From: a virus
Strand: one strand, 5' to 3'
Virus record (IMG/VR): IMGVR_UViG_3300027905_000001
Location: 15,362-79,361 of that record
Length of the DNA stretch: 64,000 bases
Both the position numbers and the translations under genes were made by a program. Of this stretch, positions 2,969-31,019 are shown piece after piece (the first letter of the stretch is position 1; every line of letters starts with the position of its first letter). The notes under the pieces were generated by a model that was not told the origin of the DNA, made no database searches, and worked only from the letters and a program-made list of their open reading frames with translations.

Positions 2969-3558
2969 TGGGTATCGTTTGCGATATCAACCGCATAGGG
3001 GAGTATCATTACCTTTAAGTTGGGGCATTGGGATTGTAGATCGTTGCGCAGCCTTTCTATATCGTCACAACGTAGTAATGCACCAAGTTTCAGGACTAAT
3101 GTATCGCTATTCATGATAGTAGCGGTGCTAATGATATAATTAGTCTGAAAACTCATCTTTTTGTTAATCTCTTCAAGCATCGATTTCACATCTCGCTCAG
3201 AGTATTCCTTTTCTCTACGCCATGTTACGGTTATTGCGTCGTTGCTTTCTTGTACTTGGACATTATAAGTTGGTGTAGATTCCGCAAGGCCAAGTAAGTC
3301 AAATCGGTTTGAGTAGCCCCTGTATATCATACTTCTAGTCATAAAGTCGTTCTCAACGGCTACGACAAGAACATCCCTAAGTACCTCAACTACTCCTTCT
3401 GGATTAGATTGCAAAAGGTCTTGGCTTATAGAGAATGTTCCTCTTCTGTCGAGCAGGACGCTTTCTTTGCGCTTGTTTTGGCAGAAAACGTTTTTACCTA
3501 AGTTACCCATTTTCCTCACTCCTTCTTGTTCGGTTAGGTCATCGTCTCTAGTGTTCAT
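2965..3558 (-). CDS. Hypothetical protein
   Basis: Track ORF; probable ATG at 3510 after GTGAGGAAA. Confidence 0.45.
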   Translation of the reverse strand: MNTRDDDLTEQEGVRKMGNLGKNVFCQNKRKESVLLDRRGTFSISQDLLQSNPEGVVEVLRDVLVVAVENDFMTRSMIYRGYSNRFDLLGLAESTPTYNVQVQESNDAITVTWRREKEYSERDVKSMLEEINKKMSFQTNYIISTATIMNSDTLVLKLGALLRCDDIERLRNDLQSQCPNLKVMILPYAVDIANDTQ

Positions 3559-15345: not shown

Positions 15346-15858
15346 TTAAAAATCTCCATATAATTCAAGATAGTCTAAAACTACACCACCACACTGACAA
15401 ACAACATTAAATCCATCAAACTCGCTAATTGGTATACTCTTCCTTCCTCCTGAGAGTGCATCATTCCAAAACCGCATGAGCTCATCTAGTTCCAGCCTGT
15501 AGATTTTATACTTGGTTGTCATTTCGATGAGTAGGAAGGATGTTCCGCCTTGAGCCTGCCAATTCTTTAGAAATTCAATTTGATGTGGTTCGATGTTGGA
15601 TAAAGGGAATCGTTTTTGATCGTGGCATTGTTTGGCATCAAAGGCGACAGGTGCTCGTCCTTTTACTACTCCAATGTAATCTATTGTTGATTTTTCGCTT
15701 GGATAAGCTGACGTAACTTTTCCTTTTGACCAAATAACTTTCCAAGGAACCCAAACTTTTTGGATAAGAGCATCACCTTTGGCTTGGTATTGCTCGTTGG
15801 CATGTTCGATAAGTTGCTCTAGCCCCTTACCCCTATTAGCGTATAGCGTATTACTCAC
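15346..15858 (-). CDS. recU: Holliday-junction resolvase RecU
   Basis: ANRGKGLEQLIEHAN..., DYIGVVKG...FDAK, FPLSNIEPHQIEFL, GGRKSIP match RecU conserved blocks. Confidence 0.7.
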   Translation of the reverse strand: MSNTLYANRGKGLEQLIEHANEQYQAKGDALIQKVWVPWKVIWSKGKVTSAYPSEKSTIDYIGVVKGRAPVAFDAKQCHDQKRFPLSNIEPHQIEFLKNWQAQGGTSFLLIEMTTKYKIYRLELDELMRFWNDALSGGRKSIPISEFDGFNVVCQCGGVVLDYLELYGDF

Positions 15859-23852: not shown

Positions 23853-25079
23853 TTACTCGACCCCTATTCTAGCCCTTGCAATACCCGCATAAGCTTTTTC
23901 TTTGTCAATTCCGATAAAATGGCAACCTACACCCTTTGCGGCCAATGCGGTTGTGCCTGATCCAATAAAGGGGTCTAGCACCGTACCGCCTTGAGGTGTG
24001 ACAAGTTTAATTAAGTACTTCATGAGATCAAGGGGCTTTACGGTAGGGTGATTATTACCTTCGCCCCGTTCCCTCTTGGAGGCCTTAGCACAATAAAAGA
24101 ATCTACTTGCCCCTCCCGAATCGCCATAACTAATCATTTCCGTTCCCTCTGGACGACTTTCTCTTGCGTAAGCATTAGCCTGATAACCTTTACTTGATAC
24201 TCCCTTTTTAGCTCCAGTTCCACTTTTCAGTATGCCTGTTTGCTCATCCAGAACTGCAGCTGCTACTTCATCAAAAATTATGTTTGCGGGAAATCTTCCC
24301 AATGGATTACTTTGGCTTTCTGTTAAGTTGGTTCCCTTTCCGTTTCCATATACTGTATTTGGTGTACGTGGTGGTCTACCTCTATCGTCATTGGTCCCTA
24401 TTCGGCTATCGTTGATATTGATCCCACCTGTTCCCCATTTAAGAACATTAGCCGCCACTGTCTTTTCGCTTAATGGTTTTCTGGCAACTACAATAGGTTC
24501 ATGCGCAGGTTTTAGAGCCGTACCCCAACCGTCCCATTGCTTTGCTTCATCAGTTTGAGCATCTAGATCGAATGTTCCACCCAACTCATACGATGCTGGC
24601 CTATCTCCCTGCTCTAAATGGATGTTATTGAAACCCATCCCTTGCTGCTGAAAATTAGTCTTTTCCAGCTTGCAGTAATCCTTTGTATTAGCTGACCCGT
24701 AAAGCAGTTTACCTTCAATACCCTTGGCAATGTTGTAAGACTTAGGGAATCCACTGCCATAAATCCACATGATCTGATCCCTGATCTCGAATCCAGCGTC
24801 TTCAATAGCACAAGCCATTCGGTGGTATGTTCTGCTCCCACCGAAGGATAGTAGATATCCCCCAGGCTTTAGTACACGTAAAAATTCTTTCCACATTGCA
24901 ACGTTGTAGGCAATTCCGGTATTGTCCCAAGACTTCCCCATGAATCCCAATTCATAAGGCGCATCCGTTACGCCAGAATCTATACTATTTGCGGGTATTC
25001 CCTTCATAACTTCCAGGCAGTCACCTAAAATAATTGAATCAAGCAAACTTTTACCCCTCCCTTTACTCAGCCTGTCCAC
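23853..25079 (-). CDS. DNA methyltransferase (N6-adenine / N4-cytosine beta-class)
   Basis: N-terminal TDAPY (DPPY-like) and C-terminal VLDPFIGSGTT (FxGxG), in beta-class order. Confidence 0.65.
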   Translation of the reverse strand: MDRLSKGRGKSLLDSIILGDCLEVMKGIPANSIDSGVTDAPYELGFMGKSWDNTGIAYNVAMWKEFLRVLKPGGYLLSFGGSRTYHRMACAIEDAGFEIRDQIMWIYGSGFPKSYNIAKGIEGKLLYGSANTKDYCKLEKTNFQQQGMGFNNIHLEQGDRPASYELGGTFDLDAQTDEAKQWDGWGTALKPAHEPIVVARKPLSEKTVAANVLKWGTGGININDSRIGTNDDRGRPPRTPNTVYGNGKGTNLTESQSNPLGRFPANIIFDEVAAAVLDEQTGILKSGTGAKKGVSSKGYQANAYARESRPEGTEMISYGDSGGASRFFYCAKASKRERGEGNNHPTVKPLDLMKYLIKLVTPQGGTVLDPFIGSGTTALAAKGVGCHFIGIDKEKAYAGIARARIGVE

Positions 25080-25563: not shown

Positions 25564-26210
25564 CTAAATGTAATCATTCACGTTTTTCCTAAACAATCCA
25601 CCCATACTCTTCTGCCATACTGACTTATTATTTTTGCCAATTTCCTGCTTGGTCATGACAGGTTTTGTCGCTGCTTCGAGTTCTGGCATGCCGGATTTTA
25701 TTCTGGCGTTGAAGCATTTCCTTGAGATGTTATTGGATTGTGCGAGTTGGATGTAGCTCGTGGTCATAAGGCGCATCTCTTGGAAAATCTAGTATCAATT
25801 GGAGTAGTGGCTGCTATTTCGGCGCTCCATCCCCTGCCCATTCTGGTAACAAAAGTACCCTTTGATATTCCGTTTCTCACAGCTATGTCCTCATATTCCT
25901 TGGGATATTTGCGCTTCTTTTCAGCCATGATCTTAATGATCGTATCTCGCTCAATAGAAGGTATCTCTGACGCTTCTTTAGGTGACATGCCCCCTCTCGT
26001 TACGCGAGAATAAAACAATGACCTGCTTATGCCGTTTCGTTCTGCTATGATTAGCCATTCACCCCATTTGTGGTAGTTGACAGGGGTTGTTATAGCTCGC
26101 TCAATACTCCACGCTAGGTCACGCACTCTTGCTGTGACTACTCTTTCGTTGATGCCATTTTGTGCCGCCATAGCATACTTGTCAGGATTGATATAGAAGG
26201 AGTAAGACAT
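25564..26210 (-). pseudogene. Protein with four HTH-like repeats (NGIS...GWS...TTP), split by a -1 frameshift
   Basis: Fourth repeat LAQSNNISRKCFNARIKSG continues in the second frame; shift maps to a T4 run near 25785. Confidence 0.45.
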
Positions 26211-26625: not shown

Positions 26626-27219
26626 TTAAAAAGGATAAAGTTCTAGTGGAATATTTCTTCCAGCCTCCGCGATTACAACAATTTTTCCTGTCAACTCTTC
26701 GATTTCTCTAACCATTCTTTCTGCGTTGGAATTGCTGTCTGATAAATGAAGTAGCACTATCTTCTTCACTTGCGACAAATCATTAGCTCGCAAAAACTCT
26801 TTGACATGCTCAAGTGAAAAATGGCTTTCGAGTAGTCGGTTTTTCATGCTTTGGGGGATGTAGCCAGCTTCAATGTTTGCGTCAAGGGTATCTTTGCAGT
26901 AGTTTGATTCTACAAGGATATAATTTAGTGAATTAAAACGATTGCGAATATAGTAGGTATCCGTACAAAAAATAAGTTTTTCGCTGGTTGGTTTGTATTG
27001 AATTAGGTAGCCGAAAGGCTGATCGCAATCATGTTGAGTGTCGAACGGTAAAACGATGAAATCTCCAACTTGAAACTGTACGCCAGCGTCAACCATTTGT
27101 GTTCTGTGGCTCTGAGATATGCCTATTTGCTTGGCTGTTCCGGAAGAGGTATAAATATCTACACCCGCCTTAATAACGTCCTTTGCGCTTCGTGAATGGT
27201 CAAAGATGTTCGTGGGTTA
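26626..27219 (-). pseudogene. MBL-fold (YycJ-like) metallo-hydrolase missing its N-terminus
   Basis: Frame open 37 codons upstream of first ATG (27096) with no RBS; starts ...NIFDHSRS where HxHxDH is expected; downstream blocks ESHFSLEH, LLHLSDSNSN. Confidence 0.5.
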
Positions 27220-27318
27220 TTAGGCACCCACGGATACGAGATAGATTAAAATCTAGGGATTGTTGTATTTTTTTAAAAGAAACTCCACATTCAATTAAAA
27301 GAGAACCGGTGTCGCTTT

Positions 27319-27939
27319 CTAAAACATAGCCATTTGCCCTTGATGACGAACTGATAACCTTGAGGTGCATTGTACTTTCCCCTTTCTCTCTTTAAATCTC
27401 CAAATGAATCCTCCAGCTTGTTTCCTAGTTAATCCTGGTTTGTATTCTGTCTCGCTTGCAACTTGAAGAATGTTCCTTCCGCATACTCCAGTTAACCTAA
27501 AGGCCTCTTGAGCGTTGGGATATTCGGCTAGTAGCTCGCCATTTAGGTTGTATTGTTGAATGGCATTAGGTCTTATGAATTTGTTGTATTTATTCATTCC
27601 TTTTAGCATGTTTGGATGAATAGATATTGCATGGATAACATTTTCGCTCCCAGATACCCACTCTAGGTTTTCAACCTTGTTGTTTTGCTTATTGCCATCC
27701 TTGTGATTTATCTGAGGCTTATTATTGACGTTGGCTATAAAAGCTTCAGCAACAAGTTTGTGAATTCTCGCATACCTTACACGTCCTTTATGAGTAAGGA
27801 CTACGGAAAGATAATCCTTTTTACTGTTTTTATTAGACAAGATAAACCCTTCCCTTAATTTCTTGAAGCTTTTCAACCTACCCTTGGTTGATATTTGATA
27901 TACACCCTCAAATCCCTCAATATCTTTCCATAGTTCCAA
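27319..27939 (-). CDS. HNH homing endonuclease (NUMOD4-like N-terminus)
   Basis: WKDIEGFEGVYQIS; HNH block INHKDGNKQNNKVENLEW; TTG start after GGGAGGTG. Confidence 0.7.
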   Translation of the reverse strand: MELWKDIEGFEGVYQISTKGRLKSFKKLREGFILSNKNSKKDYLSVVLTHKGRVRYARIHKLVAEAFIANVNNKPQINHKDGNKQNNKVENLEWVSGSENVIHAISIHPNMLKGMNKYNKFIRPNAIQQYNLNGELLAEYPNAQEAFRLTGVCGRNILQVASETEYKPGLTRKQAGGFIWRFKERKGKVQCTSRLSVRHQGQMAMF

Positions 27940-27996: not shown

Positions 27997-29019
27997 CTAA
28001 AACCCTGGGCCAGTGGTTTGATTATTCGCTTCCTCGGCCTTTTTATCCATCTCAACTATTTCAGCATCAGTAATCCCTTCTGGTTCCGTAACTGCTTCTC
28101 GGTCGCTTGAAACTTCCTCGCCTTGGATATCCACAACATCTCCCTTATTAGCGTTTTCGGCAATGACCTGCTCGACCTCGGCTTCTTTAAATTCGTGTTC
28201 GAGCTGATTTAGTCGCATGTAATCATCATCAATCTTTTGACTGTCAATGGTAATGTCTTTGTAGGCGGCAATAAAAACAGTTTTGAAGCACATTTTATCG
28301 AACCATCCCTCGACTTGCTCTTTACCGGCCGGCTTACCATTTTTCCAGATTGTCTTTTCTCCGCCCCAAAACTCGGCAGAAGCTTTATCCGGTTTCCTCT
28401 TCTCGATATCCTTACGCGGCATAACAACAAGTTTGTTTTTCTCAGGATGATCAAAATAGATATGATAATAGAAACCTCCTACAATATCACCACGCTCAAA
28501 GTCGTTGGTGATCTCAAACTCATAATGTTCAACTTTATTGGCGTGGGATTTTTTATGCGATTTGAATTTATCCGTCGAATAAACAAGTTCGACCACAACG
28601 TCATCTGGCACATCTAAGCCATATTTAACTGCCTTGAGCTGCCTACCTCTGTATCCCGGCATGAAGGTAATGCCATATTTATTGAGTGCCCCTTGCTTGA
28701 AGGGGATTAGGCTAACGTGGTTCTCTTGTGTCGGGTCCCAGCCAATCCTAGCTGCCGCCACAACGCTCTGAGCAAGTTCCTCCATATTGATATTCCCCCA
28801 GGTGTAGGATAGTTGTTCCTGGTAATCTCCGGTCTTCTTGAGGCGCTTTTCCTCTGCCTTCTTGAGCATGGAATCGGCAACAATAAAGTAGTTTTGCGCT
28901 AAACGCTTCTGAAAGTTAGTTAGTGCAATATCGCCAACGCTACCTTTAAATTCAGCTAATACCTTGTTCATAAATCGTTCCGACATTGGTTGCTCTTTTA
29001 CCGCTACTTCATTTGCCAT
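27997..29019 (-). CDS. recT: RecT-family single-strand annealing recombinase
   Basis: NKYGITFMPGYRG block; acidic C-terminus; adjacent to SbcC-like ATPase. Confidence 0.7.
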   Translation of the reverse strand: MANEVAVKEQPMSERFMNKVLAEFKGSVGDIALTNFQKRLAQNYFIVADSMLKKAEEKRLKKTGDYQEQLSYTWGNINMEELAQSVVAAARIGWDPTQENHVSLIPFKQGALNKYGITFMPGYRGRQLKAVKYGLDVPDDVVVELVYSTDKFKSHKKSHANKVEHYEFEITNDFERGDIVGGFYYHIYFDHPEKNKLVVMPRKDIEKRKPDKASAEFWGGEKTIWKNGKPAGKEQVEGWFDKMCFKTVFIAAYKDITIDSQKIDDDYMRLNQLEHEFKEAEVEQVIAENANKGDVVDIQGEEVSSDREAVTEPEGITDAEIVEMDKKAEEANNQTTGPGF

Positions 29020-31019
29020 TATTCTTGTACCTCCACTCTCAAAATAGGATCTTCCACACTGACGATCAACTTAATAACCTGCGAATTTACCCCCACAAAA
29101 CTGCTCAAGCTTTCCGCGTTATCGACAAAAATAGGGCAACTAACTCCATAAAACTCTGACAGCAAATTGATAATTTCTAATCCGGTATTAATTTTTCCAC
29201 CGTTATTAGCACCATCGAATTCAACGAGCACTCCGTTCGTATCTACCAGTGTCCGACAAACTTCTTTCTCCGTCCCATCGTTCAGGGTGTCAAACAACTT
29301 GAACTTGACTGTTTCGAACTTGCTATTAATCCTATCTTCCAGCATTTTCACTTTCGCACTTGTGAACTGTTTAATCAGGAAATCGTGTCGTTCGTATTCG
29401 CTGAGTTCTTGTGCAAGTTTGCTTTCCTCTGCCTTTAGCTCATTAATGCGAATATGGGCCTTTTCGACTACTTCCTTCTGATTCAAGGTTTTGTTCAGGG
29501 CTTCAATTGTGTCTGCAATTTCTTGCTTTCTGGCTAGGATTTCGGTTGTTGTATCTTCGACGGGCTTGTCCAGTTCGACGTTAATCCTGTCTAGAGTGGC
29601 TTTAAATACAGAATAAGTGCTGTCTGCATCATAATTAACGACTGTCGGTTGTTGCTGCTCTGTTATTGCGGTTTCTAATTCGGAAAGGCGAATATTGATT
29701 CTTTTCAAAGATTCTTCCAACGTGCTGAGACTCGCAGAATCTATTTCCTTTTCCTCGTTAAGAACTTCGGCCCTAGCCGCCTTATCTTTGCCCTTGGCGC
29801 GAATAGATGCCAATGCCTGAACTTTGTCCTTGTCGAAATTCTCTTTCAGCTTATCTATCTTTTCTTGAGTTTTTCCTTCGGGCAAAGGTTGTTCGCAAGT
29901 TGGACAATTAAAGCCTTCTGGAGCTACAAATTGCCTCGAATTTTCTTCGCTCCACTCTTTGCGAAGTTCGATAATTTTTCCAGCAATTGCATCAAGTTCC
30001 GCAATTCTTACAAGGGAATTAGAGCCTAACCTCGATACTTCCTTGGAAATGGAATACTTTTCACCTTCAAGATTTGCTTTTTCGTCAACCAACTTTTTGG
30101 ATTCAGCCCCAGCTTTTACTTCAAGTTCTAACTTCCGCCCATTAATCTGATTCTGTAATGCATACGCCTGTTGCTGTTTCTGACGATACAAACTAGCCCC
30201 TTGAGCGTTTGTAGCTAGCTCTAATTCAATGCCCTGTAAAGTGGCTTTCTGCTCCTGTAGCGAGGTTTCTATAGCTGTGTAGTCAACCTCATCTACGGAT
30301 ATCGACCGTTGCTGTTCACTGATTCTGGCAGGTATCCCATCAAGATCCTTTTTGGTGTTTTTGATCTTCTCGGCTATGACTAATTTGTGATTTTCGATTG
30401 TTCTGCCCGAATTGATTACGGTTAAAAGGTCCAACATGCTTTTATCGGATGCTGTTACGCATGAATCAATAACGCCTGAGTCTGATAAATTACCTGATAT
30501 TTCGAACAGAATCTTGCGCCGTTCTTGCCAAGTCCAGCCCTTGCCATCCGTATTGAAAAAGAGGGGATTCGTTAGGAGTTTGAAGATATTTTCTTTTATG
30601 AGAAGGTTAATTTCTAGGACATAATCCTTGGCTTTCACAGGGACGTCGTTTACCCAGTAGGACGTTTCATTTCCGTCAAAGATGGTTTCTTGCGAACCTC
30701 TTTTTTTAACCCATTTTTCTGAGAGTTGGCGCTTTAGTTTTAGAGACTTGCCGTTTACAAGAAAGATTCCCTCGACGCTTGATTCAAGATGATGGATTTC
30801 GTTGCCGTCTTTGTCTTGTGGTTTTATTTGGTAGTCTGATCTTCCGTCCGAATCCTTTCCAAATAAAAGCCACTGACTAGAGTTATAAATCGTGGATTTA
30901 TAAGTTGCATTTCTTCCGTAAACATCAGCATTTTTTCCGTTTAACTCAAGGGTAAAATCCTCTACGCCTTTGAAATTAATTAGGTGCAGTGATTGTAATT
31001 GAATAATAGTTTGATTCAT
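29019..31019 (-). CDS. SbcC/Rad50-like recombination ATPase
   Basis: N-terminal P-loop-like GRNATYKST; CPTC zinc-hook-like motif in coiled-coil; C-terminal IFVDNAESL. Confidence 0.65.
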   Translation of the reverse strand: MNQTIIQLQSLHLINFKGVEDFTLELNGKNADVYGRNATYKSTIYNSSQWLLFGKDSDGRSDYQIKPQDKDGNEIHHLESSVEGIFLVNGKSLKLKRQLSEKWVKKRGSQETIFDGNETSYWVNDVPVKAKDYVLEINLLIKENIFKLLTNPLFFNTDGKGWTWQERRKILFEISGNLSDSGVIDSCVTASDKSMLDLLTVINSGRTIENHKLVIAEKIKNTKKDLDGIPARISEQQRSISVDEVDYTAIETSLQEQKATLQGIELELATNAQGASLYRQKQQQAYALQNQINGRKLELEVKAGAESKKLVDEKANLEGEKYSISKEVSRLGSNSLVRIAELDAIAGKIIELRKEWSEENSRQFVAPEGFNCPTCEQPLPEGKTQEKIDKLKENFDKDKVQALASIRAKGKDKAARAEVLNEEKEIDSASLSTLEESLKRINIRLSELETAITEQQQPTVVNYDADSTYSVFKATLDRINVELDKPVEDTTTEILARKQEIADTIEALNKTLNQKEVVEKAHIRINELKAEESKLAQELSEYERHDFLIKQFTSAKVKMLEDRINSKFETVKFKLFDTLNDGTEKEVCRTLVDTNGVLVEFDGANNGGKINTGLEIINLLSEFYGVSCPIFVDNAESLSSFVGVNSQVIKLIVSVEDPILRVEVQE

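Follow-up and report, generated by a model that had tools for sequence, protein, structure and literature searches.

We examined a 64,000-nucleotide (nt) stretch of viral DNA, positions 15,362 to 79,361 of IMG/VR record IMGVR_UViG_3300027905_000001 (here called the window), in which a gene for a metallo-β-lactamase (MBL)-fold hydrolase is interrupted at its metal-binding motif, HxHxDH, beside a gene for a free-standing HNH endonuclease. All window features described here lie on the minus strand. The hydrolase gene starts with an ATG at 27370, ∼5 nt after a ribosome-binding site read from the sequence (AAGGGGAAAG, 27375..27384). Part 1 of the gene (27203..27370) comprises codons 1 to 56 (MHLKV...GCLITHEHL), matches the N termini of intact homologues, and ends with the first half of HxHxDH. 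There follows a predicted recoding site, CTT TGA C (27199..27205), made up of a Leu codon (27205..27203), a UGA stop codon (27202..27200), and a C (27199). Part 2 (26626..27201) is in the +1 frame, runs for 191 codons plus a stop (DHSRSAKD...ELYPF), and carries the remaining metal ligands, TQHD, TDT, and HLS. The first start codon in its frame is 35 codons in, so part 2 cannot itself be translated with the D-H of the motif.

If one T of CTT-T-GAC is skipped, the two parts become a protein of 247 amino acids (aa) with an intact HEHLDH motif, colinear with single-open reading frame (ORF) homologues of 246 to 248 aa (identity up to 74%). Alignment to intact homologues, whose DNA reads in frame at the motif (CAT CAA GAC CAT or CAT GGG GAT CAT), placed the break at HxHxDH and identified one T of the window TTT run as extra, falling between the x codon and the Asp codon. 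The 247-aa protein matched Pfam Lactamase_B_2 (PF12706; 41.6 bits against a cut-off of 27, 1.4e-10, residues 24 to 208) and phrog_392, “metal-dependent hydrolase” (9.9e-76, residues 1 to 243). The set of MBL metal ligands is complete, with HEHLDH present only once the T is skipped. Based on these results, we conclude that the locus holds an intact but interrupted recT-associated MBL-fold metal-dependent hydrolase gene of PHROG 392.

The HNH gene (27319..27939; 206 aa, TTG start, ribosome-binding site GGGAGG) lies between recT and the hydrolase gene. Its product matched Pfam NUMOD4 (4.8e-13) and HNH_3 (1e-8) and the PHROG family of HNH endonucleases phrog_59, combining a catalytic HNH domain with a DNA-binding module as free-standing HNH homing endonucleases do; a seeming variant at JGI differs only in the translation of the TTG start. 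In two relatives (L001 and L003; loci are designated by L and a number), there is no HNH gene in this slot, recT directly abuts an intact hydrolase gene, and the recT stop and hydrolase start are 1 nt apart. The window HNH gene is therefore an insertion.

A sequence-only reading of this DNA had correctly placed the HNH ORF between the recT-like gene and the hydrolase, had recognized the downstream blocks as an MBL-fold hydrolase, and had noted that the frame of the ORF at 26626..27096 stays open for ∼37 codons upstream (reading ...PTNIFDHSRS...). It took the gene to be truncated, with its 5′ end removed by endonuclease insertion, or else to be an intron or split arrangement, and saw no room for a first exon. 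The supposedly missing N-terminal part is present, with its 56 codons in another frame, an outcome that this reading had itself named as refuting truncation. The part 1 ORF (27370..27200 including the stop) overlaps the 3′ end of the HNH ORF by 52 nt in a different frame. No exon is missing and there is no intron; the two parts join perfectly when one T is skipped. The suggestion that the gene is inactivated also found no support, with no sign of decay here and with both parts intact in this and all other interrupted alleles that do not run into a contig end.

Recurrence and conservation of interrupted alleles

The shifted form is not confined to the window. We scanned IMG/VR for the frameshifted form of HEH-L-DH with the pattern CAYGARCAYCTTTGAYCAY and obtained 19 matches, 15 of which are divergent members of the hydrolase family broken at the same base. 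Fourteen of these read CTT-T-GAC and one reads CTT-T-GAT; the in-frame form CTT-GAC occurred in seven family members, and the control CT[A/C/G]-T-GAC in none. The empty control is informative because CTG, CTC, and CTA are the commoner Leu codons in intact genes. Together with five contigs from bacterial or archaeal genomes and one variant with an HSH motif, the same CTT-T-GAY break is found in 21 other family members. The base after UGA is C in 14 of the 15 shifted alleles, against a GAC:GAT ratio of 58:43 in intact relatives (P = 0.009). Pairwise identity among shifted genes is only 31 to 73%, and several have far closer intact relatives (up to 92%), indicating that the shifted state was gained or lost many times. 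Retrieval of relatives by protein patterns returned in-frame genes only, and one of the patterns spanned the motif, so this sampling gives no measure of how rare interrupted alleles are. One shifted allele lies in a phage-type recT-hydrolase module on a contig of a metagenome-assembled genome (MAG) labeled Candidatus Bathyarchaeia (L222; CAZLHA010000003.1), which may reflect either mis-binning or an unusual host range.

Interrupted genes do not resemble dead genes. In all 29 interrupted alleles that are not cut by a contig end, both parts are open, with 170 to 192 codons after the break. Skipping the insert restored the canonical HxHxDH in each of these, and the later metal ligands are kept in nearly all of them. 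For two shifted alleles separated by a dS of 0.93, dN/dS was 0.06 in part 1 and 0.07 in part 2. In none of the interrupted alleles do the first 8 codons past the insert include a start codon; a C-terminal piece made separately would therefore lack the D-H ligands.

Linkage to the HNH gene and structure of the inserts

Homologues of the window HNH protein (48 to 61% identity) sit between recT and the hydrolase in the shifted loci L113, L119/L123, L128, L131, and L279, and a seventh shifted locus (L114) retains a 49-aa HNH remnant in the slot. HNH genes of this family occupy the slot in 6 of 19 shifted loci, the remnant aside, and in none of the 100 intact loci whose upstream flank measures 700 nt or more (P = 8e-6); no homologue of the window HNH occurred anywhere in that intact set. 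The association persisted against only the 52 closer intact relatives (P = 2e-4). The HNH gene is absent from L001, L003, and the 100 intact loci and present in the slot in scattered lineages, the sporadic presence expected of a homing endonuclease.

Because the association was first found from shifted alleles, we repeated the sampling starting from the HNH protein. Its closest homologues in IMG/VR, cultured phages, and a large protein database (56 to 69% identity, one 44%) are all encoded directly upstream of a hydrolase gene. Eight of the nine distinct loci sampled in this way (L334 to L336 and L414 to L425) are interrupted at the same motif boundary, by differing inserts of 4 to 7 nt. The connection between break and HNH gene that the sequence-only reading had proposed is therefore borne out by these counts and by the 100 intact loci without this HNH family, although its proposed form, removal of the 5′ end, is not.

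Two other kinds of cargo were considered and set aside. The recT-hydrolase gap of L121 (978-1652) encodes a 224-aa HNH protein of another family (phrog_374, 5.6e-58; no Pfam match) beside a shifted allele; this second family gives no support to the association, since it also occurs, nonadjacent, in the intact loci L162 and L144. Inspection of translated ORFs in the larger recT-hydrolase gaps of the intact loci L140, L162, L185, and L004 revealed no endonuclease-like cargo, and a Pfam scan of the gap ORF, made for L004 only, returned no match.

In the notation take-off codon [insert] resuming codon, the junctions in HNH-first loci include five inserts that lead from His to His or from Leu to Leu: CAT[TAGCAC]GGA in L334, CTC[TGACTT]GAT in L414 (MT838995.1), CTT[TGACTA]GAC in L421 to L423, and the 7-nt inserts CAC[TGACCAC]GGC in L418 (the isolate Paenibacillus sp. 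GYB004) and CAT[TAGCCAC]AAA in L419/L420, the last two again joining His to His. The landing codon is unmatched in L335 (CAC[TGAGAT]GGT). Two inserts are 4 nt long: GGT[TAGC]GAT in L336 and CTC[CCCA]GAC, which has no stop codon, in three assemblies of a Clostridium perfringens prophage (L415 to L417). L424/L425 have no insert, and their motif is intact. Among cultured phages, Cellulophaga phi18:3 and phi46:3 carry CAA[TGACAG]GAC where their relative phi19:3 has CAA GAT; both lack an adjacent HNH gene, and the gene is annotated as two coding sequences.

Two regularities stand out among these inserts. A stop codon comes first in 8 of 9 multinucleotide insert types (P = 2e-10 against an expectation of 3/64), the exception starting with CCC. 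In six of the seven inserts of 6 or 7 nt, the last three nucleotides either repeat the take-off codon or form a synonym of it (Leu/Leu twice, His/His three times, and Gln/Gln once; P = 3e-7).

Several individual alleles have further features. In the CCCA alleles (around 3198-3240, including that of the isolate assembly GCA_016071175.1), the zero frame continues for ∼20 codons. CCC is probably a rare codon in the AT-rich C. perfringens host; if so, the CCCA insert may be a “hungry codon” version of the signal, and otherwise it may be a truly dead allele. The hexamer TGAGAT inserted in L335 (3650-3740) also occurs in the 5′ arm of the 17-bp hairpin next to it (TTCATGAGATATC...). Over all of the 752 nt compared, phi18:3 (L331; NC_021794.1, 2501-3250) and phi46:3 (L333; NC_021792.1, 1501-2250) have identical interrupted hydrolase genes; the two phages belong to different genera (Baltivirus and Bacelvirus), and the identity in spite of this suggests a recent exchange of the module.

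Upstream stems and mosaic alleles

In the window, a 7-bp hairpin, CGUGGGU-N8-ACCCACG (27211..27232), stops 5 nt short of the CUU take-off codon. The sequence-only reading had already pointed it out, and its loop indeed holds the TAA TAA that closes the downstream frame. Its predicted free energy is −13 kcal/mol, and its 66-nt context folds with a z-score of −2.42. Stems of this class are enriched immediately before the interruption: for the 36 nt ending at the take-off codon, the mean z-score against shuffled sequences was −2.05 in interrupted alleles (n = 30) and −0.55 in intact ones (n = 44; P = 0.005). The shuffled sequences control for composition. Many alleles have a stem whose 3′ arm consists of the His-Glu-His codons themselves and stops at the take-off codon, and the stem of L335 reaches 17 perfect pairs (−26.5 kcal/mol). 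In five alleles, the 5′ arm encodes “HE,” which occurs at that position in only 1 of 163 intact proteins. One proposal is that forward movement of the ribosome is driven by pairing within the mRNA that emerges from it (10.1101/2024.12.09.627546). As a 7-bp member of the enriched class, the window hairpin may likewise be a stimulator of a forward shift.

Sequence mosaics in some alleles are in keeping with mobility. The DNAs of L128 (HNH present, shifted) and L011 (HNH absent, intact) share ∼90% of positions downstream of the motif, and identity drops to 59% between the HNH gene and the motif, with the change at the interruption. More generally, where HNH-adjacent alleles have reasonably close intact relatives, the N-terminal part is generally much less similar to them than the C-terminal part. 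By N-terminal part, 14 of 28 interrupted alleles have another interrupted allele as nearest neighbor, compared with 15% expected (P = 1e-5).

Interpretation and alternative explanations

Based on the codon specificity of the shifted alleles, the HNH association, and the properties of the inserts, we consider it probable that the HNH gene and the interruption form a mobile cassette, composed of a homing endonuclease and a protective mini-insert, in which the hydrolase is rescued by ribosomal frameshifting or hopping. The target of the endonuclease would include the conserved motif-coding DNA of hydrolase genes in genomes without the HNH gene. A mini-insert would disrupt that target and protect the genome that carries it, and the endonuclease gene, the N-terminal part of the hydrolase gene, and the insert would spread jointly via break repair. 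The protein sequence of the motif tolerates no change, and the only inserts to survive would hence be those that ribosomes are able to skip, either 1 nt that makes a shifty stop or 4 to 7 nt that begin with a stop and end in a matching landing codon.

At the window site, the ribosome would pause, its P site occupied by CUU and its A site by the weak stop UGA-C. Peptidyl-tRNA-Leu would then slip from CUU to UUU, and GAC would be read next, yielding full-length enzyme with HEHLDH; the trans-frame product would span ...CLITHEHLDHSR..., and ribosomes that terminate instead would release a 56-aa peptide. The hairpin 5 nt upstream would re-form behind the ribosome and may promote its forward movement. 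Two elements of a prfB-type site are present, namely, CUU followed by U (slippery CUUU, 27205..27202) and an in-frame UGA followed by C (27202..27199).

A number of observations weigh against such a cassette. The third prfB-type element, a Shine-Dalgarno-like sequence 3 nt upstream of CUU, is absent: the window has CAC GAA CAU (His-Glu-His) there, and all shifted alleles have CAY GAR CAY, which suggests a modest efficiency of shifting unless the hairpin compensates. Many shifted alleles lack an adjacent HNH gene and would need either loss of the endonuclease or an independent origin; interrupted alleles without it include L124, L127, L129, L130, and those of phages phi18:3 and phi46:3. Shifted alleles L124, L127, and L130, moreover, show no mosaic pattern, and the mosaic signal in the window itself is weak, its N-terminal and C-terminal parts being closest to different intact proteins. 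In L424 (3067-3819) and L425 (MAG GCA_004196315.1), a gene for a close HNH homologue (58% identity) lies directly upstream of an intact motif (CAT CGC CAC CTT GAT CAC, WIDHRHLDH); this exception may be protected by its sequence divergence or may count against the immunity idea. Among the inserts themselves, the C. perfringens CCCA has no stop codon, and the 6-nt insert of L335 has no matched landing codon. Finally, the pair used for dN/dS has an equally close intact relative (L088), and part of its divergence may predate the insertion.

The simplest competing explanation is a dead gene, in which the endonuclease or an ordinary mutation damaged the motif of an enzyme dispensable to the phage and the two pieces are remnants that have not yet decayed. 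The annotation of the pieces as fragments, both in the source record and in the Cellulophaga phages, would fit this, as would the lack of a Shine-Dalgarno-like stimulator and the failure of the CCCA and TGAGAT alleles to show the full hallmarks of recoding. We nevertheless judge it unlikely, because none of the 29 complete interrupted alleles has a second lesion over ∼190 codons, the catalytic residues are largely kept, and dN/dS is ∼0.07. Random damage, furthermore, would not yield inserts with a stop at the front in 8 of 9 types and a synonymous codon at the back in 6 of 7, nor would it be expected to be limited to CTT with C after the stop or to be accompanied by hairpins. It is also rather improbable, in our estimation, that CUU UGA C is a regulatory frameshift site that ties hydrolase output to host RF2 or limits a toxic nuclease, with the HNH gene there by coincidence. 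The identity of the heptamer to the prfB site, the predominance of UGA among inserted stops, and the absence of an adjacent HNH gene from about half of the shifted alleles are in keeping with that idea. The strength of the HNH link in both sampling directions argues otherwise, as do the UAG-first inserts of L334, L336, and L419, since UAG is not read by RF2. The frequent switching of state between close relatives is a better fit to a mobile or selfish element, although regulation and a mobile cassette are not mutually exclusive.

The remaining explanations seem to us far less credible. A split enzyme whose pieces are made separately and assemble would have precedent in T4-like phages, where such arrangements accompany endonuclease insertions, and a report of stop codon reassignment in some gut phages (10.1101/2021.08.26.457843) lends some plausibility to an altered genetic code in which the inserted stops are read as amino acids. 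Both are very improbable here. The lack of an early start codon would leave a separate C-terminal piece without its D-H ligands, while an altered code would leave the inserts of 1, 4, or 7 nt unrescued and would otherwise lengthen an invariant motif by two residues; the inserted stop codon also ends other long ORFs in most loci. Least credible of all is a sequencing or assembly error in which a homopolymer TT was miscalled as TTT. The source is a MAG and the change is a single base in a T run, but assemblies from NCBI, JGI, and Logan all have the same 156-aa product, 21 further contigs from unrelated samples are broken identically, and same-site mini-inserts are found in isolate genomes and cultured phages. 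The break is also specific to CTT...GAC and linked to the HNH gene.

Returning to the mobile cassette, we also lean, if only slightly, toward a broader proposal drawn from these comparisons: that such loci represent a second class of cassette, widespread in nature, that pairs a homing endonuclease with a translational-recoding immunity insert. The class would be independent of T4 gene 60, have a gap reduced to 1 to 7 nt, and have evolved many times at one codon boundary of a catalytic motif. It would comprise +1 shifty stops, +4 skips, and +6/+7 hops between matched codons with a 5′ hairpin. The window CUU UGA C would then be a functional, naturally selected +1 site other than prfB, and the 6- and 7-nt alleles would be natural short hops.

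If this is correct, the coupling of a selfish endonuclease to a skippable insert would count as a general evolutionary strategy, not a one-off. Studies of how ribosomes slip and hop could draw on dozens of natural variants that differ in length (1, 4, 6, and 7 nt), in the codon used (UGA, UAG, or a rare codon), and in whether they have matched codons and hairpins, and cultured systems are on hand, including Cellulophaga phi18:3 and phi46:3 versus phi19:3, the C. perfringens prophage, and the Paenibacillus prophage. It would also mean that pipelines undercount a functional phage enzyme, since interrupted genes are annotated as fragments or pseudogenes or are not called.

Genomic context and predicted role of the hydrolase

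The interrupted gene is part of a conserved module. Upstream of the HNH gene lie a gene for a 340-aa recT-like single-strand annealing protein (27997..29019; phrog_34753, 7.6e-119; phrog_148 RecT-like, 4e-14) and one for an SbcC/SMC-like ATPase (29019..31019; phrog_77, 3.5e-62), the conserved upstream member; the ATPase-recT-hydrolase gene order is also found in relatives. This fixed position after an SbcC-like ATPase and recT, often before ssb, suggests that the hydrolase may be a nuclease of a recombination or repair module.

The sequence-only reading had raised the possibility of an Apyc1-type counter-defense phosphodiesterase, for which we found little support. The protein scored 17.5 bits against a cut-off of 50 for the Apyc1 family PF23023, over only the 43 residues around the motif (18 to 60), and the only solved relative, PDB 7t28 (Apyc1), was matched at E = 0.0025. 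Like the Apyc1 anti-Pycsar phosphodiesterases, the hydrolase is a phage-encoded MBL-fold enzyme of similar size, and some of its relatives are annotated as such; it differs in its subthreshold score and in its conserved place after the SbcC-like ATPase and recT and before ssb.

The window comes from a prophage in a Candidatus Desulfosporosinus infrequens MAG from peat soil, in which both hydrolase pieces were deposited as “fragment” (SPF51192 and SPF51193, with part 1 being SPF51193.1). A megablast of the region against cultured phages gave no match, and neither did exact DNA pattern scans for other assemblies of the window locus in viral and genome collections.

Other genes nearby were noted in passing. 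Two genes downstream of the hydrolase, a 148-aa ORF (25764..26210) matched phrog_1065 of unknown function (1e-37) and, weakly, the “HNH endonuclease” family phrog_3377 (6.7e-8). A 408-aa ORF (23853..25079) resembles DNA methyltransferases by eye only; annotated Cellulophaga phage relatives have DNA methyltransferase genes downstream of the same recT-hydrolase module. In L001 (5835-6733), the closest intact relative, the gene after the hydrolase consists of two AAA-domain ORFs of 181 and 118 aa that overlap by 4 nt and may be another split gene.

Comparison with known systems

We found no prior description of this case in the literature, in a search whose coverage excluded most subscription journals, so earlier work may exist. 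An MBL-fold hydrolase is mentioned neither in a major recoding review (PMC5009743) nor in a phage frameshift-prediction paper, and a 2013 genome-wide frameshift survey contains no matching cluster. The “cyclic-nucleotide phosphodiesterase” frameshift cluster of Antonov et al. 2013 (6% efficiency) was considered as a candidate and rejected on account of its A-rich slippery motifs.

In engineered Escherichia coli constructs, Weiss et al. (1987) reportedly observed +1 slips by stops and hops of +5/+6 in which ribosomes cross a stop to reach a matching codon, both at low efficiency. The “shifty stops” and “forward hops” of that work have the same geometry as CTT[TGACTA]GAC, CAA[TGACAG]GAC, and CAT[TAGCAC]GGA; those were synthetic reporters, whereas the alleles described here are natural and appear to be under selection.

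The programmed +1 frameshift of prfB relies on a Leu codon, an RF2-specific stop, and a C after the stop, all three of which are conserved (PMC12421855). The window heptamer CUU UGA C is identical to it. Unlike prfB, the window has no AGGGGG element 3 nt upstream and has an upstream hairpin instead, the hydrolase is unrelated to termination and implies no autoregulatory loop, and the site appears to have arisen repeatedly and independently instead of by descent.

A parallel for the tolerance of such alleles comes from “savior” indels, as in herpes thymidine kinase G-run mutants that are kept by low-level compensatory frameshifting (PMC5009743). In both cases, an indel that protects from an external threat would be tolerated because a few ribosomes restore the frame. 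The threat and the rescue are a drug and a G-run slip in herpesviruses; here the presumed threat would be an endonuclease and the rescue a slip or hop adjacent to a stop.

The closest counterpart is the mobA-gene 60 cassette of T4, which a 2022 analysis still called unique (10.1101/2022.08.31.505936). Its insert prevents self-cleavage; all phages that have the endonuclease also have the insert, as do several from which the endonuclease has been lost (10.1101/2022.08.31.505936). Bypassing of gene 60 involves a stop or hungry codon after take-off, matched take-off and landing codons, and a 5′ stem-loop (10.1101/2022.08.31.505936; PMC5009743). Both systems have a free-standing HNH-type endonuclease gene beside a gene interrupted inside a metal-binding site, and the hydrolase loci share HNH adjacency, stop-first inserts, matched codons, upstream stems, and alleles without the HNH gene; in the 1-nt allele of the window, the equivalent of matched codons would be the re-pairing of CUU on UUU. 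The differences are equally clear. The target here is an MBL hydrolase after recT, not a topoisomerase, and the host gene has not been divided in two. The window endonuclease is of the NUMOD4 plus HNH_3 type. The gaps here are 1 to 7 nt, compared with 50 nt in gene 60, occur in at least ten versions, and are too short to be homologous to the T4 gap, and the window version is a predicted +1 frameshift rather than a bypass.

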